DNA of 62,956 nucleotides, the filler included, from Jimgerdemannia flammicorona (Eukaryota), in the NCBI GenBank assembly GCA_003990765.1. It is 2 parts of 2 records of this genome, joined end to end, with 100 filler letters (N's around TTAATTAATTAA, not from the genome) between each part and the next. Parts side by side here need not be neighbours in the genome. Positions count along the whole stretch, not along the records: positions 1 to 31,430 come from RBNJ01000400.1; 1 more part is not named here. The stretch is one strand, 5' to 3'. How positions within the stretch are numbered: the stretch's first letter is position 1; the number at the start of each line of letters is the position of its first letter. The notes under the pieces were generated by a model. That model searched no databases. It saw only the letters and a list, made by a program, of their open reading frames with translations, and was not told the origin of the DNA. Below, piece after piece: positions 243 through 50,499 of the stretch. Position numbers and translations under genes: made by a program.

Positions 243-2821
243 TTAACCAATCAGATTGCTGATCGACGGCAGCCGACTTGCCGTGCCAACACCCCCAGCT
301 GGGAGCCCTGTTCCATCAGAATCCTTTTTGACCTCTGGCTCTAACACATGTGGCCCCGGCTCCTCATCTATCTCCACCTTCAAAACGACCTTGTCGTCGT
401 ATCTGGCTTCATTTGCAGGTGAAGGTGGCCTGTGGTCCAAATGATATGACCAACGTCGTTGGTCGCCGCCTACAGTTCCTCCGTTGTTGCTGACGTGAGG
501 AGCGATGAGGGGTGTACGGCCAGGCGACAAGGCTGAAACGGTGACATTGGACGGAGCGGAGTTGTAGAGAGCATTGGGTATCGGAGCGAAATAGGGCGAA
601 GACGACGTTACGGTCGGTGACGTGGCTGGTGCAGTCGTAGAAACCGACGCACGATTAGGGGTGTCAATCTCCTGTGGTGGCAGCAATATGCCGTGATTCG
701 CGTGATCATGAATTGTTTGCTGTTGTAAGAGGGGTTGTAAGGGGGATAGTCCGGTCATAAGCTGCACAGAAGGCGAGACGGCGGCAACGCCGGAATCGCG
801 TTGATGGTGTGCACCAAGGTTATCTCCGTCGTCCTCAAATAGTCCCCTCCTGAAAGCGATTTCACTCTCCGACAAGACGCGTCCGTGCTTTGGCTCGCAT
901 TCGGCCTCACCCACGGACCGCGAAGAATGATACCCCTCTTCCTCCTCCTGACGATCTGTTGTATCCTGCCAAATTTCGAAATCGGGATCTTTGCGTTTTT
1001 TCCCTGTCGCGGTCGCTGCTAGCAGGGCCAAAGTCAATGCACCTTCTTTAGCCGACCCCAACTGACTTGGCGGAACGGAGCGTGATCGTCTTGATTCGAT
1101 GCCATCGACTTCAACGCTCACTTCCCTTGAGAGTGGACTACGAACTACGGGGAACCAGCTCTGAATTGCTTGGGGATCTATGACGTTATTATTTGCCGCA
1201 GCTACGCGACGACGTTTTTCGACCAGATGGCGGGAGGGTGAATCTGATGATTTGTGCCGCGAATTGTTCCTACCATATTGTATGGTGGAGGGAGGAGTCG
1301 ACGAGCTCCGCCAGAGGTTTGGTGACGCGGCCACTGCATTATTCGATTGTTGAAGTTGGGTTGGTGTCGTTTGAGCTGTCGAAGTGGAGGTGGACGTGAG
1401 CAATGTTGTCGGTCGCGTAGACGCAGACGCACTCCCGTAAGACAATGACTGCGGACCTAGCACGCGGGGAGTAAGCTCGGCGCCCGTGGTGGGAGGGATA
1501 AGAGTGGACGACGTTGCGGGCATAAAGGATGGTGAAGGTGAATTATGGAGCATGACAAGTAGGTTTGCGGCATCAGTGTCGGCAACGGATGCACTCGAAC
1601 TGTGTACGGGAAATGCTGACGGTGATTGAATTTGTTGTCGAGGTGTAGTGGGACCATGTGCAGAGAAGTTGTCAGGCGTCTTATCGGCACGTACGTGATG
1701 TGCATGTCGATGATTAGTGTCTAGAGCATCCGCTGGTAGCTCCAGCTGTGCCGCTGCCGCTAGCAGGTGCTCGGGAGTTCTTACACCGGCCAACAGGTTC
1801 ATCCTTTGCAACGGTGTTGACCGCACGTCCTCGCCCGGGGTGAAGGATGATCGTGGTGTCCCCTTTGGAGACGTTATCCATTCGTCGAAATTAGAGGTCG
1901 ACGGGGAAAGAAATGATGCCATCCGGCCTGTGCCAGAGGTGTTGTTAAATTTACTAGATGTCTTCTTTGGTGTGTGCGTCCGTTTCGCCGAGAGCTTCGG
2001 CGAGTTGAGACCGTGTCTCACCTGAGGGGTGGAGAGGTGCTGCTTTGGGGTGCCAGGCGGGGCACCCACGCATTTTCGGAAATTATCCTCATCCATCTGT
2101 TCGTCTTCATCATAATCATCGTCGTCATCATCTAGCAAAAAGCGGGTACCGTTGAGATGAATGTTTGATTCTGGGGCCGGTTCCAACGTGCGCGTGATGA
2201 AAATGCTTGGTGGCGCTGACGAAATTAACGGGGAGTCTTTAAAGAGTTTTGTCTCAAGCGACGCCAAATCATAATTCTCCAGGCCCTTTTGGGCCTTGAA
2301 ATTGGCAAGGGCAAGGCGTGTCTTGAGCGCTCGAAGAACCTGTATGTATATATATTTGAGAAACAAAGTTTTCATAGATTGGTAAGATCGTGTTACCAAT
2401 ACATAATCGTCCAGATTGTATGAGTTCACTCGGAAGGCCTCCACATATGTTCGAACAAAACATAGTGTAAGTTTCACGACGCGAACAAGTAAGCAGGACG
2501 CACGCGTCGGCGAAACGTGAACGCGTTAACGTCAGGTACACGACAGCCGTTGTAGTTGCGTAATAAGCTGTTTGGGTGTACGTTGATTCGTGGCCGCAGT
2601 CAATGCAGTGTCAAGAACGCGTCAGCCTCCGTAAGGTTGGCCGAATGCAAGATTTCGTCTGCTCTACGAGTTTGGGGTTATGTGCTCATCCGTGGTACAT
2701 TCCGTGCGAGGGCGTCCTACAGCGCGTTGTAGCAGGAATGGAACAGGTCGCATACCTTGGAAACCTCCGCCTTATACAGGACGGTTTCGGTAATCTTCTT
2801 GTTCCGTATCGCCTCGGACAT
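243..2821 (-). CDS. Whi5/Nrm1-family (Stb1-like) G1/S transcriptional regulator, ~720 aa, 2 exons (2821-2756, 2339-243)
   Basis: Exon 1 MSEAIRNKKITETVLYKAEVSK ends AAG|gtatgc and joins in phase 0 to cag|GTT at 2339. This gives VLRALKTRLALANFKAQKGLENYDLASLE, the Whi5/Nrm1 GTB-type motif. The rest is a long disordered region rich in S/T-P CDK sites, with a DAANLLVMLHNSPSP motif resembling the Stb1-type helix. Confidence 0.7.
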
Positions 2822-3339: not shown

Positions 3340-3830
3340 AAATTATTAATTATTAGTACTATTTATATTGACATCTATTTATATTAAAATTTATATTATT
3401 ATTCCTTGGACTGCTTACTTGTGGGCTTCTCTCATTTTTGTTATAATTATTATTCTTGATGAATTTTAAAATTTTAATAATGAATATTATTTGGCTAAAT
3501 TAGGTTTATTTTATATTTATTTAAATAATTAAATTACTAAAAGTATTAATATTGTAATAAATTATTTTTAAGTTTATTTTTTAATTTAATAAAATAATAA
3601 TAATTATAAATAATAAAATTTTATTAATTTTATATTTTAAAATAGTTTATTATAGATAAAAATTAAAAATAATAATTTTATTATAATATAAATTAATTAA
3701 TTATTATTATTATTTTTAAAAATAATATTAAAGTTATTTATATCTTATTTAAATTATGTTATAATTTCTATATATTTATACTTAACTTACTCATTGATAA
3801 AAATTATCTCACAGGCTTAATTCAAAATAT
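3340..3830. other. Extremely AT-rich block, probably a mutationally eroded repeat
   Basis: Almost only A/T, TpA-rich, no CpG, with sharp borders against GC-balanced flanks. Confidence 0.6.
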
Positions 3831-4064
3831 AAAATATTCACAACCAGGGTTCTCAGAGTATACCAAGTTCCTTATGAAGATCCCCAGTCTTATGTGGATA
3901 TCTTCAATAAAGTACATCTGCAAGATATAGATAAATAATAATAATAAAGGGATATAAGAAATACCAATCAAATAACACTGGTCGCCCAAGCTCACAAGGA
4001 TACTTTAAGTATATAAATAAAGTTGATGTATCAGAAAATAAAATGAAATGAACAATTGGAATAG

Positions 4065-7000
4065 CTATGTTTGAATAACCAGACTCTTGTTCTGCATCTC
4101 GGCTAGGGAACGCACTCCGTCGTCGCTGATGCTGTTCCCTGTTCATTGGTGGTAAGTGACGGAGAAAACAGGCGCAGGTCGTGAGCCGTGCAGCCTAAGA
4201 CAATGGTTCGTGCGATTCAAACATGCATACTTTCGAGATTCAGCTGGGTCAGCGTCGTATTCTGCTCCAGAGATCCGGCTAGGGCGCGAGTTCCGTCGTC
4301 GCCGATGCTGTTCCCTGTTTATTGGAGGCAAAAGGCGATGACGAAAACACGCGAAGCCTATTAGCCGGATGCCATCGTGCAGCTCAAAACAACAATTTAC
4401 GCGATTCAAACATGCATACCTCTGAGATTCAGCTGAGTGAGGGTCGCGTTCCGCTCCAGAGACCCGGCTAGGGCGCGCGCTCCGTCGTCACCGATATGGT
4501 TCTCTGTTCATTAGGGACAAAAAGTGATAATGAAAACACGCGAAGGCCATGAGCCGAATGCCATCACGTGGCCCAAAGCAACAGTTCACGCGATTCAAAC
4601 ATGCCTACCTCTGAGATCCAGCTGAGTCAGCGCCGTATTCTGCTTCAGAGACGCGGCTAGGGCGCGCACTCCGTCGTCGCCGATGTTGCAATCTGTTCAT
4701 TGGGGGTAAAAAATGATAACGAAAACACGCGCAGGTCGCAGGCCGTGAGTCGGATGCCATCGTGTAGCCCAAAGCAATGGCTCACGCGATTCAAACATAC
4801 ATACTTTCGAGATTCAGCTGGGCCAGAGTCGTGTTCTGTTCCAGAAACTCGGCTAGGGCACGGACCCCTTCATCGCCGATGCTGTTGTCTGAGGGTGAAA
4901 TGATGAGCGAACACGCACGGATTGTAAGCTTGATCCCATGCCAAGCTGTAAACAATGATTCACAGAGTTCTGACATACTTTTGAGATCCAGCTCGGCCAA
5001 GATCGTAATCTGCTTCAGAGACTCGGCTAGGGCACGGGCCCCTTCAGCACTCATCATAATATCTGAAGGTAAATGGAGGTAGGCGAACACGCACTGGTCG
5101 TGAGCTTGATCCGATACACAGCTGCAAAAAAATGGTTTACATACGTCGGAGATTTAGCTCGGTCAAGGCCGTGTTCTGCTCCAGGAACTCGGCTAGGGCA
5201 CGGGCTCCCTCGTCACCGATGCTGTTTCCTGAAGATGAACGGGGGGAAATGAGACACGCACAGGCCGTGGATTTGATGCCTATAACATATCTACAATGGT
5301 TCGCACAGTTCTGACATACCTCCGAGACTCAGCTTGGTCAAGGTCGTGTTCTGCTTCAGAGACTCGGCTAAGGCACAGGCCCCTTTGGTGCAGATGCTGC
5401 TCGCTGAAGATGAAATCGGAGCTAAACTAACATCCACGGATCGCGAGCATGGATTCATGATACTGCTGCAAAAAAATGGCTAACATACCTCCAAGATGCA
5501 GTTTAGTCAAGGTCGTGTTCTGCTTCAGAGACTCAGCCAGAGCACACGCTCCGTCGTCGCCGACACTGGTCCCTGAAGATGAGCGGGAGATGAACGAGCA
5601 CATATAGATCGTGAGATTGAACCCATGACACAGCTGCGAACAATGGTTTACACAGTGCTAACATACTTTCAAGATCCAGCTCTGTCAAGGTCGTGTTCTG
5701 CATCAGAGGCTCGGCTAGGGTACAAGCCCCTTTCATGCCGATCATGTTCGCTGAGGATGAAACAGAAGATAAACTAATATACGCAGATCGCGAGCTTGAA
5801 TCCATGACACAGTTGCAAAAAATGGTTCACATAGTTCCGATATACCTCCGAGACGTAGCACAGTCAAGGTCGCGTTCTGCTTCAAAGATTCGGCTAGGGC
5901 ACGGAGCCCCTCGTCTCCGATATTGTTCTCTGAAAACGAAAGCTGGTCATGAGTTCAACCCATGATGCAACTGTAAATAATGGTTCGCACAGTTCTAACA
6001 CACTTCTGAGATTCAGTTCGGTCAAGGTCGTGTTCTGCTTCAGAGACCCTGCTAGGGCACGGGCCCCCTCGTCGCCGATGCTGTTGGCTGAAGATGAACG
6101 GGGGGACGCGCAGATCATGAGATTGAGCCCATGACATAGCTACAAATAATGGCTTCGCATAGTTCTGACATACCTTCAAGATTCAGCTCGATCAAGATCG
6201 TGTTCTGCTTCAGAGATTCTGCTAGGGTACGGGCCCCCTCGTCGCCGATGCTGTTCACTGAAGATGAACTCGGGGGTGAGCGAACACGCACAAATCGTGA
6301 GCTTACAGCCGCAAACAATGATTCACAGAGTTCTAACATACCTCTGAGATTCAGCTCGGTCAAGTTCGTATTCTGCTTCAGATACTCTGCTAGGGTACGC
6401 GCTCCGTCGTCGCCAATGCTGTTCGCTGAAGATATACGTGGGTGAGCGAATACGCACAGATCATGAGATTGAGCTCATGACATACAGCTACAAACAATGG
6501 TTTCGTACAGTTCTGACATACCTCCGAGATTCAGATCGGCCAAGGTCGTGTTCTGCTTCAGACACTCGGCTAGGACACGGGCCCCCTCATCGCCGATGCT
6601 GTTGCCTGAAGATGAACGGAGGAATGAGCAAACACGCAAGTATTGTGACATAGCCGCAAACAATGTTCACATAGTTCTACATACATTCGAGATTCAGCCC
6701 TGTCAAGAATTTGTTCTGCTTTAGACACTCGGCTAGGGCACGGCCCGACAAAAAGCCGATGTCGTTATCTGAAGAAGACAATTGATGAGCGAATATGCGA
6801 GATCGTGAGCCTGCTTGATAACGATTACATAGATATAAAAGCCCATCATCGATACAGTTCCGACATACTTTCAAGACTCAGCTTGCTACACGTCGTGTTC
6901 TTCATTAAAAATTTGGCGAGAGCAATGGCTGCCTTATCGCCAATTCTCTTGCCTGAAGTAAACAGAGGATAAGCGAACACAAACTTGATCTCATGATCCA

Positions 7001-7287
7001 GCTGTACATGCAGTTCTGACATACCACGAAGATCCAGCTCAGTCGCATTCTCTTTCTGATTCAAAAGCTCAGTAAAGGCACTGGTACCCTCGTTACCAAT
7101 GCTGTTCCCTAAAAATGAACAGCAGATAAGCTAACACACATAGGTCGCGAGCTTTATCTTGCCATATACCTTCAAGCAAATGGTTCACATAATTCTGGCA
7201 TACCTCTGATATTCAACTCGGCCAAGGTCGTGTTCGGCCTCAGAGATTCGGTTCGGTTATCAGCCCCCTCAGCGCCTATGTATTCTT
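4065..7287 (-). CDS. Ribonuclease-inhibitor/NLRC3-type leucine-rich repeat domain encoded by 18 exons of exactly 84 nt plus a terminal exon; probably the C-terminal half of the adjacent kinase gene
   Basis: Exons 7287-7204, 7108-7025, 6952-6869, 6768-6685, 6605-6522, 6425-6342, 6257-6174, 6087-6004, 5929-5846, 5750-5667, 5572-5489, 5403-5320, 5228-5145, 5062-4979, 4888-4805, 4692-4609, 4503-4420, 4314-4231 and terminal 4138-4065 (TAG). All have yAG acceptors and GT donors, all are phase 1-1, and there is no stop after splicing. Consensus xNSIGDEGARALAESLKQNTTLTELNLR. Confidence 0.88.
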
Positions 7288-7413
7288 CTGAACGTAAAAA
7301 TAACCAAATGTAAGGAGCGAAATAGCTGTAAGTCAATCCTGGGATGCCCAACTTTGTTGTGATCCATCCAGTAATCACGTCTCTGACTCGCTACCATTAT
7401 TTTCATGCCACCA

Positions 7414-8972
7414 TTAGACACGAAGTAAGAACACAAATACCTGGCAGTTAGCAAATGTGAACATAATAAGCCATCTCTTGTGCAACTTCATACCTGGATT
7501 CAACTGTTGTCCAACAGTCTCTAGTACCATCGGTGAGTACTGTTTCGTGATTTGCGTGAGCTCGTCACTTGCATAGAATTTGCTTCCAGAGTCACCTGTA
7601 TAGAATTTGCTTCCAGAATCACCTGAATAGGGTTTGCTTCCAGAGTCATCTGTATAGGGCCTGCTTCCGCCGTCCACAAAATTGAAATCGTTGTTGCTGT
7701 CCGTAAAGTCCAGCCCTTGTTGAAGGGTGGCCCGTCGTTCTTCTATGAACGATTGTGTCTCGGGTGAAAAAGACACTGATGCAAGGGATAGTTCTCCAAA
7801 AATTTGATCCTCCATACTCGGTTGAACAGGAGAAATCTCGACTAAACCAGCTGCACACACGATTAGCTGATTGTAGACTTCCCGAGCATTTGGTCGCTGG
7901 TCGGGATCAAGGTGCCAGCAACTCCGGATGACATTGTTGAATGCTGTTGGTGCACCAGGGATCAAGTCCTCACGCAGGCCTTCCGGGTTGCTTTTGGCGG
8001 CTTCCGACGACAAGTCTTGTGGCGGGACACCGACAATCAGCTGCCACAGCAGTGTTCCCAAACAGTAGATGTCTGATTTCTGTGTATACCGCTTTCCCCC
8101 GAAGATCTCTGGAGGGAAGTATTTTAACCGGCCATAGCAACCTTTCATGGAATGTGTGTCTTCCACAGCTCGGCTAATTCCGACATCAATCAAGAGCGTG
8201 GTGAGAGACTTGTGGAATACTACATTACCCGGGTGGAGATCCTCGTGGGTGAAGCCCATTTCGTGGAGACTGGCTAAGCGGCTGGCAAGTTTTGTGGCAT
8301 ATATCAAAGCTGTGTACCAATCATCATCTGGTTGACATGGCCGCTGCTCAAGAGTGCCCATATCAGCATATTGCATAATCATCAGATACACTCCGGTGCC
8401 TGGATGTTGTGACAACCCGATGATATCCATCGTGGGGGTATTTATATAATTTCCAGAGCATCTCAAATAGATATTCAGCGCCAACTGCATCAGGTATAGT
8501 AGGATTACTGATTAGCTATGTCATAGGAAATACTAAGTAAATTCCATCCATTGGACCTCACCTCTGCAACCATTGACATGTTTAATTCTTTGGCAGCCAC
8601 CCAGTTATGAGTTGATATCTCAATATGTGCTCCATATACTTTGGCAAACCCGCCTTCTGCCAGCTGTTTTAAGTCTTGGAGGTCATCGTGCGGAATCCAG
8701 GTAAGATATGGCTCTAACTGCGGCGCACCTAACTTGTTGAGGCAGGCACGGAGTTCTGGGTCCGAATATCGAAACACATTCTTCCACCTCAAGATGGATG
8801 ATTGATGTGCTCTTTCGAGTTCGTGGAATGGTTTGATTCGGGCTAACACTGACTGAAGGCGGTTGTGGGTGGACATGAGAGCTAATGTTTCCAAATAATT
8901 TAGGCGCTCTATCAAAACTGTTGTATAAATTTTAACCGAGGTGAATTTATTGTTGCGAAACCAAGATTCCAA
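7414..8972 (-). CDS. Tyrosine-kinase-like protein kinase domain (non-RD); 5' end of the gene uncertain (possibly extends to ~9425-9545)
   Basis: Motifs WIPHDDL, AEGGFAKVY, VAAKE, HEDLHPGN, DVG, YFPPE, KSDIYCLG and CW..DPDQRP. Intron 8561-8485 (gtgagg..atgcag) joins the two ORFs in phase 0. A phase-1 donor at 7493 (CCA G|gtatga) is compatible with the first LRR exon. Confidence 0.85.
7574..7672 (-). repeat. 27-nt coding tandem repeat, ~4 copies (GSRPYTDDS/GSKPYSGDS/GSKFYTGDS/GSKFYASD) in the kinase-LRR linker
   Basis: Unit tagaatttgcttccagagtcacctgta starting at 7574, 7601, 7628 and 7655 on the + strand. Confidence 0.85.
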
Positions 8973-9811
8973 GATTCCTACTGTGGCTTGGGTCGTACAC
9001 GGGATTTAGTGTCATGTGATATTGTAATGTGTCATTTGTTTTGTTCCTTCTGATCCGGGAAACGGAGTTGAAAAAATTGCCCATCCTCTCATCCTCTTCG
9101 CCGGCGTTTTTTTTTTTTTTTTTCTCTGCCTCTCTACTCTTTCTTTCTTGAGCTTGTTGTCGTGCGATTCTCTGCGGAGAGTCTTCTTGGGGTATAAGGT
9201 TGAGGGGCGACAACGTCGTCCCGCTCACCTTCTTTTCCAGCGTTTTTGTTTGTCCTCTTGTTGTTTCTCACTTGCCGACGACGCCGCTGTGGCCTCTGCC
9301 GAGAAATTTTCTGTTTTCTGCGCGACTCCTTCGATCACCAGCGCAAATTCCACATCAAAAGCTACATCCACAGCCTTCTTTGCGCAGGCCAGGGACTGAA
9401 GCTTGTGTACATAAACAAAATTCATGCCCAGTGTGTGAAGGAAAAGATTGCGCGCTGGGAGAGAGATCGGCGCATCATCGAGTTGTTGCCTATTGTGGTA
9501 CCGGTCGAGGAAACCACGGTGTTGTTGACGGATGGGAGAGGGCTACTGACAGCTCAACCGGTCCAGTGTCGGAAAAGAAATGGGAGGAGAGTGAGGAGTA
9601 GGAAACGAATGTCAGCGGGGGCGAAAGAAGGTGAGGGAGGAGCGGAGGGATGTAATGTAGTGGTGAATGTGTGGGTTTACCACCTGGATTGGAAACGGCC
9701 AAGTTATACGTACAAGGGTTCTTGGCGATGCCTTGTAACAGTGTTCCAAGCGATGATGAAGTGATCTGGTCGAAACGAAGCATGACGGCAAACGTTGCTA
9801 AAGTCGAGTAG

Positions 9812-31530: not shown

Positions 31531-32187
31531 AAAATCCATGGAATATTGAGTCCATTAAAAAAAATAAAAAAAAAAAAAAAAAAAAAAAAAAAGTAGTAGG
31601 TGTCACTCTTAGCTTCTTTTAGCAATATGTGGGATTGGGCCTCAGTCATTGGGGGGGGTTGGGGGGTCCAAGGCTATCTATTTCAGATGTCTTAGCTATA
31701 CTTAACTAGAACCAAGAGCTGATATAACAATGTGATCAAGGTCTACAGACTTAAGTAGTGGAATATTAGAGGTCTCCTTCTGCCTCACATATAAGTTCTC
31801 TACTCACCTCATCTGAGAGAACCAGGCCCTATCCACTGTAATGTACTTTGATGAGGGTTTTTTTCTTTGTCTATCATTCTCCTTGAGGTGGTAGGGGTTA
31901 TTCTATTTGACTTGAGCATAGCCTTATACATATATTGGGGTTTCAGATATACACTTTTGGTTGTTAGTATATGGCTGAGTTCCTCCTGATAGTAGGAAGA
32001 GCATGGTGCACAAAATGAGATATGGACTACTATAAGCTCTGCTGTGTCTGATATGGTCAAGCTGCTAGACAATAGCTAGCCTAGGTTAATGAGGGGGCAG
32101 TGCTCAGTGGGTGGTGGGGGAGGGATTTGGCCTATATAGTCTAGGTTTCCTTCCAATAAAAATCTGTGGGACTCTGAGTCTGTAAAA

Positions 32188-32231
<44 letters not shown>
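31531..32231 (+). mobile_element. Retroposon family: the 3' end and poly(A) of one copy (31531-31592), followed by 5'-truncated copy B (31593-32231) with a long poly(A)
   Basis: Shares ctagcctaggttaat..ggcctatatagtctaggtt..ccaataaaaatc..gagtctgt with copy A; A tail at 32183-32231. Confidence 0.8.
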
Positions 32232-34122: not shown

Positions 34123-36233
34123 TATTGACATCATCTTGAACAAACCCTGTTCTTTGGGATTCTTATTATCTTTCAACTTCAACATCATCCGGCTTCTGCA
34201 TTTTCGGCCATTCATTCGGCTTCTCCGGTGCGAGCACTTGCGCCCCAACCACATCATCCGCCATTTTAACCGCGATCAATCCCCTATCCTCTTCGCTTCC
34301 TCACTGTCTTTTTTCACCAGCGAGGCAGCGAGCCTCCTCTTGCGCCGCCAAAGTAGCAGATAACGACGATGACGCCCACGATGATGCTCACGCTGAGGCC
34401 GTCGGAGGCAGTTGAGATTATGGTGGTGGTCGCTATCGTGGTCACAACCACGGATTGCGGGTTGCCGGAGGCAGTGACGTTTGGGTATGGTATAGGTCGT
34501 GAGCCAAGACCAGGTGGTGGTATTTAGGACAATAGTCTCACTGGTGATACTGGAGGGAGCGGTGAGGTCGAAGTCGATTCCGCCTTTGTCGAAAAGAGAA
34601 AGCATTTTTCAGATTTTGTACATTTTATGATAGAATCGTGTATCCCCAAAGTAGCGAGCGAATTCCTTTTCTCCATTTACACACGTCTCACCTGTTTCAC
34701 TCAATGACAATACCAAGCAATTACTCACCTCCCATCACAATCATCGCATCCCCAACCTGCACTGTAGAGTGCTTAATTAGTGGCGCCGGGACTGTGCCAG
34801 AAATGGTGGGAGCCGACCAGATGAACGTACGTGCATCGAGAACGACGATGTCCCCGAACATGTTCGTCGTCTCTCCCTGGCCACCGTAGATAGTGATCAA
34901 GTAGTCATCCGGACCTGTTGGTGGATTTGGAGGGGTTTAGCGACTGTGCTGTGGACAGATGAGAACTAGATGTCCTCAAAGGTCCACAAACGTAACGAAA
35001 CCCGTCTTCGACATCTCCGTGCGGTGCCAATTTTCAAGGACCTCTCCCTCTCCCCAAAAATATATATATAGGTAAGACGTCGTGATAATTACCGACGGTG
35101 GCACTGTGACTATGTCGCGCCGCTGGAATTGCCCCTGTTGTGGTAACTTCCAGTTTTGTGCTGTATGGAAATATATTATCAGCACTTGCTATGTGATGAA
35201 CAATGATAACCATCAAAGAAAATCCGAGCTCTGACTGTAAAGCAGGCGTCTGGGACGTACTTATAAGTTAATGCTTGGCTCATTGGGATCCATACATTAC
35301 TGGGGGTGTTAATCACACCAGTAAGAATGAGAAGGCCGGAATGTGCGGTGTAAGAAAGAAATGAGGTGGATGCATTTAAGCTCCTGGCTTCAAATCACCA
35401 AGCCAAAGTCCCTCATCATAGGTTCAAAAAGACTGACTAAAGCCACAGACAATCAACTTACGGAAGCCAGACCATCCGATGCAGACGATGGAAAATCACG
35501 TTCAGCAGCTGATTTGGAATGATTGAGTGAGCCGGCTAAACTCGAAATCATCAGGATCACGGTGAAAAGTGTATGAGTGGGGTAGTACACATCACAAGAA
35601 CTTATACAGACCAAGGCTTGCAACTTGAGATGCGCCCGAGATGGGAGAGAAAAGTAAACCCATCCAGACCCAAGCGTTTCCGGAGTCGTCCCAAGCCACG
35701 ATGCTCTTAATGATTATGCAATGTGAGAACCATATTTCGTCAGAGTTTTTTTTTTTTTTCGAAATTTCTCTCCTGTGAGAGAGAAAATGGAGAAATAAGA
35801 AAAGGTCTCACGTCGGTGGAAGCGTTGAGGAAGTCGAACCTGGTAGTATTGTCCATATGTAATTAATGATATCAAACTTCGCCATCCCCATACGTTTTGT
35901 TAGTGCCGCTGTCTGGTCTGCCACGTAGAAGCCTGTCTGATCGGTAGTCGGGAACATTGTCTCGTACTGCGAGAAAGGAGCTTTGGAAAGGTCATCCGCC
36001 CTTTCTGTCCACGGCGGGCTGCTCACGCTCCAGGGTACAGAGACGTCGAGTGTAGCGGCGGTGTTCAGCACGTTCTGCGAATTGTTGGAGAAACCGCCAT
36101 ACACCCCAGATAATCTTTCTCAACAAGACCGCATGGGCGGCGCCGCGTGGTATTACGGCTTCGACCTGGATTCGCGTTGTCAACGCGCCAGGAGGATGAG
36201 TAGGCTCCAGGCGTCCGTTGGGAGAGCAGCCAT
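34123..36233 (-). pseudogene. Kelch beta-propeller single-pass membrane protein, frameshifted (probable pseudogene)
   Basis: Signal peptide MAALPTDAWSLLILLA, Kelch motifs VYGG, PAARHSHSATV, ITIYGG..DIVVLDARTFIWS and IVLNTTTWSW, an S/T stalk, TM SIIVGVIVVI and basic WRRKRR. At least four frame changes are needed to join these parts. Confidence 0.7.
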
Positions 36234-36949
36234 TGATGTCGCATTTCTGACGGGAGTGTTGGGAGTGTTCCAAAAAGTTGGGGAGATTATCTGTAAGATT
36301 GACTGACCTTTTCTAGTACGTTTGCAGTTGCCCAAGGGCAGGCCATCACAAAACCCTGTTACCGTACATTGAGTACCATTGAGTATTTGCGCCGTACATT
36401 TAAGTATATGTGTATGTACACCAAGTATGCCATGTATGTGACGTGGTTTTACGATGCACAGTTTAATTCGTGTAAGTAGGCTGGCTACAAATAGCTTTTG
36501 TTTACCTCAAACCAAACTTCGTAATTGAGCTACGAGAATGTTGTTCTCCTTCACCGTAAAGTGTAACGGACTGCTCGTATAAGAACAACTTTTTATTGAT
36601 CTGACGCCTAGCAACATGGTGTGACATGAATGCGGATTCATAACATCAGTTCGATGAGTGTCACTGTTCAGTAGTTTTATCATTTTGATGGATTGTCCCT
36701 TCACCACGTAATTATACTTCCATAACGGTGTATACGCTGCCAAGATGCTGCGACGGTAATGACCGTGTTGAGGAGCATGGATACTTGTGACGGGGACAAC
36801 GATGAACTTATGCATGCGATCGCTAGTCTTGACACATCTTTTCTGATTCGGTTAATTCTGATCATCAGTAAAAAGTAGTTCTGGCTATCATGCCAACACC
36901 AGATATTTGCTTCTCTTAAAGTCTGGACTTAGACAAGAAATGAAAGTTT

Positions 36950-37950
36950 AGAATAATTAATTTAGTGTCAAGAGAGAGTGATATTATCAGTTCAACTATA
37001 CTAGACAAATATATTAGAATAAAATAAAATAATATATATTAGCTATATACTAGAACCAAGATAAACCATAATAATAGTTAATCTTTAGTAATATATATAT
37101 AACTATATAATTAAATAATTTTTCTATTAATTAATATTATTAAAAAAAAAAAAATTATTAAAAAGAAAAATTATATATAAAATATATTATTTATTAAAAG
37201 ACTTTAGTAATATGTATTAATTATTTGATTATATTTCTTTAACTTCTAAATATATATTATATTTAAGTTATTTAATAAAAAAAATAAAAAAATAAAATTT
37301 AAAATTTAAATATGAAATAATCTAAGATATATATCTTAATCTATAATTATAAAATATAGATTTGTCTAAGCTATATATAAATTAAGATATATATTTTATT
37401 AATTTTGATTTTTATTTATAATTAATCTTAATTATAATATATAACTGAAAATATTATATCTTTTAGCTTTTATTTATAATCTTTTCTATTTAATATTTAT
37501 ATTATTTTATTAAAATTAATTAAAATTAATTAAATATAACTAAAAGATAATATTATATATATATATATTTCTAATTATTCCAGATCTTTATTTCTTCTTT
37601 GAAAAGTTTAAACTTTGAGAGATAGCTTTGTTATACTCTATCATTTCATTACTTAGTCAGCTTGTTAAATTATAAATAAGTATTTCTCTATCTCATCTTT
37701 TTTAATTTCTAATATAAAGCAGATTTATATTCTTACTTAGTTGAAACTTATTATACTTCAATTCTATGTCAGATCTTAATCTTTGTTCTTTTGAAAATTA
37801 AGATACTCTTACTATATAGTTTGATTCTCTACCAGACATCTTGATCAAGATTATATCACTTAGAAGACAATTTACATCTCTGAATTATACTCTCACAGTT
37901 TATAAAATAATACTAATTGCTAACATTCTAATTCTAAATTTGTTTATATC
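36950..37950. other. AT-rich eroded block
   Basis: Very low GC, CpG-free, no ORF. Confidence 0.55.
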
Positions 37951-37955
37951 CTTAG

Positions 37956-38420
37956 ATGAATCTCAATAAATTGGATTGTATGAATTTTGTACTAGTAAAT
38001 GAATATAAATAATGCAGCTTACCAATTCAGCACCAGAAAAGGGCATGGAGGAGATATTATAAGTAAATTCCAAAAAAAAAAAAAAAAACCGTTAGTGTCT
38101 TCGCCTCGTGCTACCCAATTTACATTTTAGCAATCAGGGACTCTTGAAAAAACTATTTTCTTTTTGATCGCATCACGGCATCATTTTCCTGTGAGACCCG
38201 ATAGTACTGAGGCTTGAAAATCAATACGCCTCTACGCGGCTGCAGTTAAACATAAACTTGGACCTGGATTTCTGATTCTTGGATAAACCAAATTGCAATT
38301 AAACATACATGCAGCTTGGAAATGAGGGGTTGGTTACTTCTGAAATTTTCATCGGTCGTAATCGAATAAGAAATATCCTGATATCTATTCAATCTTTCCA
38401 ATATTATTAACATATCCCAA
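37956..38420. repeat. Dispersed repeat, copy 2 (see 32317-32850)
   Basis: Same ordered sequence blocks with indels. Confidence 0.8.
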
Positions 38421-47533: not shown

Positions 47534-48079
47534 CAGCTCCATCAAGCAAAGCTCAAAGACCTCCTCTCGAGGAACAGAAAGATCCTTTGGGCACTATTTA
47601 CATTTGTAATTCCAGTATTAGAAAACTTTTGACCATCTAGACTATGATTAATTTACTCACATATACTATAGGTTTTTGATATATGTATATGTCTCAGATA
47701 CAATTACAACCTTTTTACCCAGCCTCTCAGTCTTGCTGAGTAGTCAGTTGAGGAAGTATCTGTGACTCTATGTTAGTATCTTCTGAATCTGATAGAATAA
47801 ATGAAAGTATAAATATACAAGCTATAAAATAAAAAATAGATTATAATATTTCTGTAATACTGTATCATATGTCTGTTCAACCTTCTCTTCTTTTTTCCAG
47901 CTATAAAATGTGAGTTGAACCAGGAGATGATTACTATATCAAACATCCTTAGCAGTCACAATACTGCTTTCTTATAAACCTTATTAATTAGATTATATAT
48001 ACTTATTAGTATATATATTATATATAACAGAACTCATCTCATCATCATACAGATACCTGGTAGATATATAATATGATAT

Positions 48080-48486
48080 CTGCCTCATATGTATGTAAGT
48101 CCTTTACTCATCTCATCTGGGAGAACTAGACTCTACCCACTATACTATACTTTGATGAGAGTTTTTTTTTATCTGTTATTCTTCTTAGAGTGGCAGAGAC
48201 TATTCTATTTTACTTGGATATAGCCTTATATATATATTGGGGTTTCAGATATGCACCCTTGGTCATAGGTATATGGTTGTTCCTCTTTAGTAATAGAGAG
48301 AGTATAATATATAGAATAAGATATAGACAATAATACTCTATTATACCTGATATAATTGAGCTACTAGACAATAGCTAGCCTAAGTTAATAGGAGTATAGT
48401 ACTTGAGAGGTAGTGGGGGAGGGTTTTGGTCTATAGTCTAGGTTCTTTTCTAATAAAATCTACAAAACTTTGGATTTATTAAAAAA
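48080..48486 (+). mobile_element. Retroposon family copy C, 5'-truncated and heavily transition-mutated
   Basis: Aligns to the 3' ~400 bp of copy A with numerous C>T and G>A changes. Confidence 0.75.
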
Positions 48487-48491
48487 TATAT

Positions 48492-48742
48492 CCCTTATTC
48501 TATAATATAATGCAGCCAAATTTGGCTGCAAAAAAATTTTAAATTTTTAAATTTTTTTTTGACTTAATATTTATTATAAAATTATAAAAAAAAAATTTTT
48601 TTGAAAAAAGTTAGGAAATTTGAAAAAAAAAATTGAAATTTTTTTTGATAATTTCATTTTTTTGATTTTCTTTTGATTTTTATAATATTTTTATAGTTTT
48701 TTTTTTTTTGCAGCCAAATTCAGCTGCATTACAGAGTAAGGG
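48492..48742. mobile_element. MITE-like element with ~35-40 bp terminal inverted repeats beginning CCCTTA
   Basis: Left end cccttattctataat..gcagccaaatttggctgcaaaaaaa; right end ttttttgcagccaaattcagctgcattacagagtaaggg. Flanked by ATAT on both sides with an A/T-only interior. Confidence 0.7.
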
Positions 48743-50499
48743 ATATATATATATATAATATATATGAGATTATCAAGAGCAAGTAGTAGTTGAATTATAT
48801 ACTAGATATTGTTTTTATCAAAGCAACTATGATCTTATTAGGGGTTTTATTATAAATAAAAGAATAAAAATTTATATATTATACTTATAAGTAAGCTATA
48901 TAAAGATAGAGTATAATATTATAATATTTCAATAAATCTTATATAAGTGAGTACTATATCAGAAAGATCTAAACATCAGAATCAATAATATAGATATTGA
49001 CTCTATTTAGTCTTTATAGGCTAGTATAACTTTCTTATCATATATTTAAATAAATGTTTACTATCTAAGTTGCTAATTATATATATGAGCTTTAAGTCTA
49101 TTTCAACAAGTCTATTATTAGATTAGTAGTAGTTCTTTCTTTAATATTTATAATATATAATAGTAGTTTTATCTTGTAATATAGGTGGTCAGAATCTATA
49201 GATAGTAGCTTCTTATTATATAATAGCTAAAGGTAGAATTAGAGAGATATATAACAATATTGAGTATAAATTATAATAATCTGAATGAGATTTTTTTTAG
49301 TTACAACACTAAGTATATACTATAATGACTGCTCTATCTTCTTGAGCTCATCATTGTATCAGTATATATATCTTATCTTATATTTAAATTGCTAATATAA
49401 TTATATGATCTAGGATCTTATAGAACTATCTTTATGAAGTACTAGTAATATATAGTTTTAATTTCATACTTAAGTAGAATATAGAAGAAGAATTGATGAT
49501 TATAATATCTCATTTGCTAATAATTAATAATAACTATATTATATATAACTCTTTTTTAAAAAGAAAGAAAATATATTAATAATATGTTTGAATAAATAAA
49601 TAAAATAAAATAAAATAAAATAAATAAACTTATCTAATATAACTTATTTATTATTTTATCAATAAACTCTATCTTATATTTAGTATTATATAATAGATAC
49701 TGAGTCCTTTAAATATATCAGATTTTCTTTAAAGTGTATCTCTTAGACTAACTATAAGTTTATTATAAGTAAGTTTTTATTGGAATGCTTTTCTAAGATC
49801 TTATAGTCCTCAAACTTCTTATCTTTAAACTGTCTTGTTATCTCTTAGATTATTTATATAGAATTAAGTATAAGTAAACTGAGAGAATTGACTTTATTTT
49901 TAGAAAAATAAGAGAGATATATATATAAAATATAATTCAATAGTTACTAAGATATAAAGCTAAATATAAATCCAATAACTAAATAAAATACTGAAATACA
50001 GAAAACTTCAGTTGTAAGTATAAATTTGAATATCTGTACAAATAGTTACATAAGTTTAGAATATTGATAGATTTCAGTAATATAAGAAAAGGATGCCAGA
50101 AGATTTAGATATTATAAGGAACTTAGAGCAGAATATTCAGAACTCTGAGTACTTCATCTTTATCACTATTATTAAGACTAGAGGTTAGAGATAGGATGTC
50201 TTTGAAGGAGATGAGGTTAGTGAATATTTTATCTGTCTTATATATTTTGTATATGTCATATATTTTATATACTTCATACATATTGCCAATTAGTGAGATA
50301 ACATCATTACATTTGGCAGCAGAGAGGAGATCAAGGAGATCTAGGACTCTCCAATCTATGATATTCTCTTCTACAAAATAAAAGACAAATATGGGATCTT
50401 GGGGGGGTCTAACCTGGATGCTGAGGCCTTAGAATACTGAGATCAATTCTTGTAGAAATTAATCAGGATTGTCCTTGAGGATGGAATTCTAGAACTCTT

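Follow-up and report, generated by a model that had tools for sequence, protein, structure and literature searches.

An expressed kinase gene with a tandem array of one-repeat LRR exons in the fungus Jimgerdemannia flammicorona

What protein does a fungus make from a kinase exon followed by a long series of equally long exons, each encoding a single leucine-rich repeat (LRR)? The question is raised by a locus in a 62,956-nt stretch of the Jimgerdemannia flammicorona genome (assembly GCA_003990765.1), here called the window; coordinates are those of the whole stretch, and the gene is read on the minus strand. The original prediction placed at 4065..8972 an intracellular kinase-LRR receptor whose repeats could be rebuilt by exon skipping or unequal crossover. 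Our analysis shows a soluble kinase-LRR protein, encoded by a modular gene that has grown by duplication of units. The protein is probably a cytoplasmic LRR-coupled signalling kinase, in which a horseshoe of the ribonuclease inhibitor (RI) type would bind a partner and so control or place the kinase.

A gene model built from splice sites runs on the minus strand from an ATG at 8876 to a stop at 4065. The predicted end at 4065 stands; the predicted start, 8972, is only the start of an entry in the open reading frame (ORF) listing, and the start codon lies at 8876. The spliced frame is 2892 nt long (963 aa) with no internal stop, and all 20 introns have GT..AG borders. Exon 1 (8562..8876, 315 nt, phase 0) begins at the ATG. 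Intron 1 (8485..8561, 77 nt, GT..AG) separates it from exon 2 (7494..8484, 991 nt), which encodes the remaining kinase domain and a linker and ends in phase 1 with a GT at 7493. The boundary between the kinase and the LRR array is intron 2 (7288..7493, 206 nt, GT..AG). The two kinase exons total 1306 nt, which puts the donor after 7494 in phase 1; exons of 84 nt preserve that phase. The 963-aa frame agrees with the prediction that the array stays open after splicing and lies downstream of a kinase exon with a phase-1 donor at 7493. At the end of exon 1 there is an extra GT, 9 nt upstream of the donor (8562-8570, minus strand), the use of which would remove three residues. This loss equals a gap in the gene model of an Endogone relative described below; contigs of three sequencing runs use the donor after 8562.

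A scan for AG-N84-GT on the minus strand of 3900-9200 gave 32 matches, 18 of them in a regular series from 7287-7204 to 4314-4231. The third frame is open in each of these 18 and reads a 28-residue RI-type LRR. The resulting array (4231..7287, minus strand) consists of 18 exons of exactly 84 nt apiece, all phase 1-1, with 17 homologous introns of 72-112 nt between them; the 18 introns that follow LRR exons have the same length range. LRR exons 1-6 lie at 7287-7204, 7108-7025, 6952-6869, 6768-6685, 6605-6522 and 6425-6342; exons 7-12 at 6257-6174, 6087-6004, 5929-5846, 5750-5667, 5572-5489 and 5403-5320; and exons 13-18 at 5228-5145, 5062-4979, 4888-4805, 4692-4609, 4503-4420 and 4314-4231. A terminal exon (4065..4138, minus strand) carries a truncated 19th LRR (nhmmer E 7.4e-9) and the TAG stop (4067-4065). 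Searched with an nhmmer profile made from the 18 exons, the 63-kb window yields exactly 19 units, with E from 2e-25 to 7e-9, and each belongs to the minus-strand array. Introns, the opposite strand and the remaining sequence contain no LRR unit, and the six other rows have E >1. Tandem Repeats Finder also detected the array, with periods of 168, 189 and 347-348 nt. Scan and gene model both recovered the 18 consecutive 84-nt, phase 1-1 exons that had been predicted. Their description as 19 interchangeable exons applies to 18; the 19th carries the stop, and repeats 1-4 are much more diverged.

Intron 2 leaves room for another interpretation of the locus. Read-through from the donor at 7493 meets an in-frame stop after 27 codons, and the ORF listing gives a frame at 7414..8490. 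The locus could accordingly be two genes or a decaying one, with the kinase ending by read-through at 7414 and the LRR array separate or dead. Four public runs (X1-X4) contain parts of the stretch, and their contigs were aligned to 3800-9400. The word shares of X3 and X4 are small (0.07), and these runs were used only for two exactly spliced contigs. X1 and X2 were taken to be RNA because their contigs are spliced and intron 2 is uncovered. Contigs of X1, X2 and X3 (records 5, 13 and 19) join 8562 to 8484, with intron 1 removed. Record 4 of X1 (1200 nt, depth 29.1) covers 8292-7494, ends exactly at the donor and has 401 further letters downstream; record 12 of X2 (1455 nt, depth 122.8) covers 8292-7494, likewise ends exactly at the donor and has 656 further letters. 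Depth in the bin 7353-7539 was 7.16 in X1 and 30.2 in X2, exactly 46/187 of 29.1 and 122.8. This ratio indicates that 7494-7539 alone is covered and that 7353-7493 of intron 2 is uncovered. Bins with one LRR exon had 84/187 of the kinase-contig depths (for example, 13.1 at 6979-7165 in X1). At position 6915, in LRR exon 3, depth was 29.1 in X1 and 122.8 in X2, on a piece starting at the exon edge 6952. Kinase exon 2 is spliced to the LRR exons in one transcript in these two runs.

The 3' end of the gene was also present. In record 1 of X1 and record 8 of X2 a piece starts at 4137 and continues to 3800, which corresponds to the spliced last exon and about 275 nt of 3' untranslated region (UTR). 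Positions 545-882 of the X1 contig (892 nt) lie on 4137..3800 and 10 letters are left over, which places the approximate end of the 3' UTR (3790..4064, minus strand). In a root metatranscriptome, one contig (X3 record 15) has 4979 spliced to 4888 without a mismatch. These data make two genes or a decaying locus very improbable: the X1 and X2 contigs with 7353-7493 uncovered continue past 7494 into LRR exons, the last exon and 3' UTR are present in RNA contigs, all exons are open, and in the Endogone gene model these domains belong to one protein. The 46/187 depth ratio rules out that the gene truly ends by read-through of the kinase exon. The original prediction of a single kinase-LRR gene had named, as the case that would speak against it, a kinase ending before 7287 with unexpressed LRR exons; this case does not apply, as the LRR exons are transcribed and spliced to the kinase. 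X1 contigs showed no differences from the window sequence. X2 contigs differ from it at, for example, 3862, 3903, 6915, 7626, 7997 and 8820 and have a 1-nt deletion at 8893, suggesting a second strain or haplotype in which the first exons are spliced alike.

The kinase domain spans both of the first two exons. The exon 1 product begins with some 65 aa of conserved N-terminal extension, followed by a glycine-rich loop and the beta-3 lysine (VAAKE); submitted alone, exon 1 matched no Pfam family. Exon 2 matched PK_Tyr_Ser-Thr (9.8e-23, 81.2 bits) and Pkinase (1.1e-21, 77.8 bits) and contains the motifs HEDLHPGN, DVG (for DFG) and PPE. Solved structures matching exon 2 are kinases of several groups (FAK, Aurora A) at about 2e-17; since these groups match alike, the matches do not place the protein in a known kinase group. 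Of the catalytic residues, the translation retains the beta-3 Lys, the Asp and Asn of the catalytic loop and the Asp of DFG. The HRD Arg is replaced by Glu, which makes this an atypical, non-RD kinase, and the catalytic-loop Lys is replaced by His. Across motif instances in the 150 nearest cluster representatives the loop residue was His in 92 and Lys in 102, and HxDLHPGN occurs in most of the closest of these representatives. The loop His is a trait of the clade, and the kinase belongs to a Mucoromycota HxDLHPGN clade; in the Atlas, the kinase clusters occur most often in Mucoromycota. Rhizophagus also has an expansion of kinases, a subject on which our literature search listed nothing.

A linker of about 120 aa and low complexity connects the kinase to the LRRs. 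Within it, Tandem Repeats Finder detected a 27-nt tandem repeat of 3.9 copies (7564..7668, minus strand), which encodes four 9-aa repeats rich in Ser, Gly and Tyr. These repeats, which are missing from the Endogone relative, may serve as phosphorylation sites or as a flexible tether. Over the whole protein the 19-residue Kyte-Doolittle mean peaks at 1.13, within the kinase, indicating that the protein is soluble, with neither a membrane segment nor a signal peptide; the lack of a membrane segment had been predicted.

The 18 full repeats are each exactly 28 aa long and fit the RI-type pattern LxxLxLxxNxIgdeGaxxLaxxL (unit 28-29 aa). Leu is invariant at columns 16 and 25, and columns 4, 5, 8, 12, 13, 19, 22 and 27 are nearly invariant. 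Four single exons were submitted to Pfam: LRR_6 was matched at 1.2e-5 (25.4 bits, cut-off 23.4) and, below the cut-off, at 2.3e-4 and 8.7e-3 (21.4 and 16.5 bits), and among these four the first LRR exon gave no LRR_6 match. Column entropy peaks at 2.91 bits in column 1, whose codon the intron splits, followed by columns 24 and 3. In RI-type LRRs, columns 3, 24, 26 and 28 are x positions of LxxLxLxxNxL on the concave face. Among repeats 5-18, the ratio of nonsynonymous to synonymous substitution (dN/dS) was 1.08 at these four columns versus 0.33 at other codons. A concave-face dN/dS of about 1.1 would fit a variable binding face.

The best database match is a hypothetical and unstudied protein of 769 aa from Endogone sp. 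FLAS-F59071 (BC937DRAFT_86469, P0001 in our searches). It is 57% identical to the gene product over exon 2 and 50% over the full length; tblastn of its residues 1-107 against the window gave 54% identity (exon 1), and tblastn with this protein found no second kinase-LRR gene in the window. Pfam recognised a kinase (1.9e-22) and LRR_6 (1.3e-33, 112.8 bits) in it. Its LRRs matched the solved structures of ribonuclease inhibitor (5e-29) and rabbit NOD2 LRR (2.6e-26), and further those of LRRC34, DRC5, RanGAP and NLRPs. The structure cluster nearest to its Atlas predicted model was NOD2 (TM 0.52). Other named relatives are kinase-only, from Endogone (43% identity) and J. flammicorona (39-44%); with the 57% match in Endogone, they agree with the predicted setting in an early-diverging fungus. 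No database protein identical to the gene product appeared in the protein searches.

Kinase and LRR_6 were seldom found together. In wider protein searches the combination was present in 1 of 25 proteins of 579-2000 aa and in 1 of a further 15, which was the query itself. It occurred in none of 15 proteins of 181-578 aa and in none of the 43 representatives scanned of 150 listed, the 43 being about 300 aa or longer and either the closest or those with several kinase stretches. Sel1 was found in one of these 43 kinase relatives and Ras/Roc in one. Since many database entries are short pieces from intron-bearing contigs, the absence of the combination is weak evidence. Among the matches listed, the Endogone protein appears to be the only other one with a kinase and RI-type LRRs. 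A metagenome scan with the kinase gave two loci: a 1602-nt contig with a kinase 69% identical, which ends too early to reveal what follows the kinase, and a weak match. Atlas clusters that combine a kinase with LRRs were set aside as a different architecture; they bear LRR_4 and are bacterial where taxa are recorded. Also left unused was P0176 (ENA), a protein with NACHT and RI-type LRRs whose repeats matched the array at 53% identity over 324 aa, a level that consensus-like RI repeats reach easily. If P0176 comes from a fungus related to this one, it would be a fungal NOD-like receptor (NLR) that bears LRRs.

How the array arose can be read from its introns. All 18 align mutually, in two classes. 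Class A (array introns 1-14) is mostly 65-88% identical, the best pairs being introns 5 and 7 (88%) and 4 and 6 (85%); class B (array introns 15-18) is 75-84% identical and has a longer 3' end. Mutual homology had been predicted for introns of about 75-115 nt, close to the 72-112 nt measured. Exon identity is 48-57% among the diverged repeats 1-4, 63-88% among repeats 5-15 and 80-81% among repeats 16-18, and these blocks parallel the intron blocks. The homology of the introns shows that the array grew by tandem duplication of whole exon-plus-intron units, the outcome that unequal recombination yields. The two-unit periods found by Tandem Repeats Finder, together with the intron pairs 4/6 and 5/7, indicate that two-unit blocks were duplicated. 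Unequal recombination of exon-plus-intron units, two-unit blocks included, has enlarged the array and keeps it partly homogeneous. These units and periods, and the presence of about 12 repeats in the Endogone relative, support unequal crossover as the process that builds the array, as the original prediction had proposed. Exons are no better conserved than introns (70-88% versus 65-88%), and much of the likeness among repeats would therefore be recent.

This last result speaks for an ordinary scaffold or regulatory protein, in which a constant RI-LRR module for protein-protein interaction, of the kind in RanGAP, LRRC34 or LRR proteins of the dynein regulatory complex, sits on a lineage-expanded kinase or pseudokinase and the exon pattern is a trace of recent tandem duplication without a part in diversity. 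Other observations agree with such a protein: the closest solved relatives of the Endogone LRRs include LRRC34, DRC5 and RanGAP besides RI and NLRs, an Atlas cluster named 'RNI family protein' is common in Mucoromycota, the kinase motifs are degenerate, and the genomic context is housekeeping. However, over 19 units neither the frame nor any of the 40 splice sites is disrupted, the scaffold codons are under purifying selection (the dN/dS of 0.33), and the variable part is the concave face. Retention of the architecture in a second fungus at 50-57% identity further argues that it is old and maintained. On balance we regard a mere scaffold as quite unlikely. Even in that case, the gene would be a clean example of repeat-domain growth through exon-plus-intron duplication.

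The LRR-coupled signalling kinase introduced above is the interpretation we favour, and the same domain order in the independently annotated Endogone protein supports it structurally. The LRR horseshoe would be the binding part, its most variable positions being those of the concave face and the codon split at the exon junction. Through this variable face it would bind a cytoplasmic protein or another ligand, and binding would control or localise the kinase, for example by releasing autoinhibition or bringing kinases together.

Several points weigh against this interpretation. The records of X1 and X2 type these runs as RNA only by guess. The row for the joint 7494>7287 is itself absent from the joint listing, and the join is read from the lengths of the contigs and from depths that match. 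Rare isoforms are dropped from Logan contigs. The dN/dS comparison of repeats within one gene uses non-independent pairs, and the resulting pattern is usual in most LRR proteins and is no proof of a sensor role. Similarity among the repeats may stem largely from recent duplication or conversion and not from constraint. Finally, with the HRD Arg and the loop Lys absent, the protein may be a pseudokinase.

The original prediction went further and saw in the locus a possible variable receptor for non-self or microbes, a fungal counterpart of animal NLRC and brown-algal ROCO receptors with a solenoid re-assorted by exon skipping and unequal crossover, which would yield many binding specificities. 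All 18 exons are symmetric (84 nt, phase 1-1), so that any skip would be frame-neutral, and the concave face and the junction codon are the most variable positions. The non-RD state of the kinase is, in plants, linked with pattern-recognition receptor kinases. Repeat number differs between the two fungi (19 versus about 12). At identities of at least 90%, 972 contigs of X1 and 682 of X2 aligned to the region, and summed contig depth reached about 48,000 over 5296-5482 versus 29 for the gene's own X1 contig. Such numbers suggest that the organism has many related LRR transcripts, although a summed depth of contigs is no copy number. In brown algae, according to the available text of two sources, the layout of one LRR per exon in LRR-ROCO genes is accompanied by exon shuffling and alternative splicing (PMC3341825; PMC11378527).

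Direct signs of re-assortment were sought in the contig joints. Joints such as 4270>6008 and 5045>5323 were rejected as exon skipping, as they lie inside exons and out of register. The listed joints (15 of 138) had depths of 110-1300, versus 29 and 123 for the gene's contigs. Being intra-exonic, out of register and too deep, they are attributed to repeats or paralogues. Among these 15 of the 138 joints in X1-X4 contigs there was no skip from exon edge to exon edge. Nor did nhmmer on both strands of the window find inactivated or inverted intronic LRR exons, a hallmark of Ectocarpus in the portions of its description available. The gene also has no NOD or Roc-COR switch domain, and its neighbours are ordinary. 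Exon skipping, which is part of the original prediction, and Ectocarpus-type shuffling therefore found no backing here. Its variable LRR sensor fared better in part: the concave-face dN/dS agrees with it, whereas the likeness to NLRs is by analogy only. We consider a variable non-self receptor unlikely. Were it one, it would be a candidate LRR-based recognition system in an early-diverging mycorrhizal lineage.

A bolder version of the receptor would make this gene one of a large expressed family of cytoplasmic LRR-cassette receptors in Endogone-like mycorrhizal fungi, in which the kinase replaces the NOD module and is coupled straight to an RI-type LRR sensor, microbes, endobacteria, viruses or plants are recognised, and crossover and skipping renew specificity. 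We think this distinctly improbable. If true, fungi would have invented LRR-based innate recognition on their own, a trait that according to reviews they lack.

Other genes in the window encode BAR, MFS, aminotransferase, ABC transporter, NIF phosphatase and retroelement protease products. A 744-aa open frame at 243-2477 (minus strand) matched no Pfam family at E up to 0.001. AT-rich islands (GC 0.22-0.30) at about 3500-3800, 20000-22000, 36000-38000 and 48000-50000 lie between genes of GC 0.45-0.53, and long A or T runs occur at 13046-13095, 21426-21507, 32184-32231 and 61253-61332. About 300 nt separate an 18-nt tandem repeat (17176-17308, 7.4 copies, 96% matches) from the ORF of the MFS transporter (17605-18768). 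The ORF at 56209-56766 (plus strand) encodes a retroviral-type aspartyl protease (RVP_2, 1.3e-10), and the surrounding 52000-60000 shows strong strand skew (GC skew about -0.2, AT skew up to +0.23). This stretch is probably a long terminal repeat (LTR) retroelement.

Comparison with known systems begins with the Endogone protein. It has the same elements in equal order: an N-terminal extension, a kinase with HEDLHPGN and DVG, a linker, and 28-aa RI-type LRRs. It differs in having about 12 LRRs instead of 19, a distinct linker and three residues fewer at the exon 1/2 junction. With the kinase-like proteins expanded in Mucoromycota (Endogone and Jimgerdemannia, including multi-kinase and Sel1-linked forms) the gene product shares HxDLH(P/S)GN and clustering; these relatives differ in that none of the 43 scanned of 150 listed has LRR_6.

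Plant LRR receptor kinases and LRRK/ROCO kinases likewise carry their LRR sensor and kinase on a single polypeptide. The plant proteins have a signal peptide, an N-terminal extracellular LRR of plant type, a membrane segment and a C-terminal kinase. The reversed order, the lack of a membrane segment and the RI-type repeats indicate that the protein described here is not a plant-type receptor kinase. In LRRK/ROCO kinases an N-terminal LRR and Roc-COR precede the kinase, whereas here the kinase precedes RI-type LRRs. Neither Roc GTPase nor COR appeared in the Pfam results for the exons and the Endogone protein, and the protein is therefore not a ROCO protein.

Animal NLRs of the NOD/NLRC kind and ribonuclease inhibitor share with it the LRR_6 class, the 28-aa unit and a cytoplasmic location. 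Animal NLRs carry NACHT/NB-ARC and CARD or PYD; here a kinase is fused directly to the LRRs, with none of these domains. Pfam found no NACHT or NB-ARC in exons 1-2 at E up to 1, and the remaining protein is LRR. Without a NOD domain the protein is not an NLR, and the comparison holds by analogy only. LRR exons of animal NOD/NLRC genes are 84 nt long, a point for which our literature search found no statement, and RI and NLRP LRRs lie on 171-nt exons.

In gene layout the closest parallel is Ectocarpus. According to the available text, its LRR-ROCO genes have one LRR per exon, with exons of equal length and symmetric phase in a tandem array; these exons are 72 nt long and encode 24-aa plant-like LRRs N-terminal to Roc-COR (PMC3341825). 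One-LRR exons, symmetric phase and a cytoplasmic signalling protein are common to both, a likeness of layout and not homology. Unlike the Ectocarpus genes, the gene described here has 84-nt exons and 28-aa RI-type LRRs C-terminal to a kinase, and is without Roc-COR. If the protein is a receptor, it would join brown-algal ROCO and animal NLRC genes as a third case in which 'one LRR, one exon' arose independently.

Among fungi, the sensor repeats of NLRs are WD40, TPR, ankyrin or HEAT, LRRs being of plant and animal type, as far as the available text of two sources goes (PMC12258605, PMC10197012). One of these searched 122 fungal proteomes with a model set that included LRRs, and no fungal NLR with LRRs is mentioned in its sections available (PMC12258605); those of two other papers make no mention of LRR kinases in these fungi (PMC8778642, PMC12574304). 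No published description of this gene was found, which, given partial literature coverage, is weak evidence. What is new in the J. flammicorona locus is an LRR-coupled kinase with a one-repeat-per-exon array, in a lineage lacking described LRR sensors.

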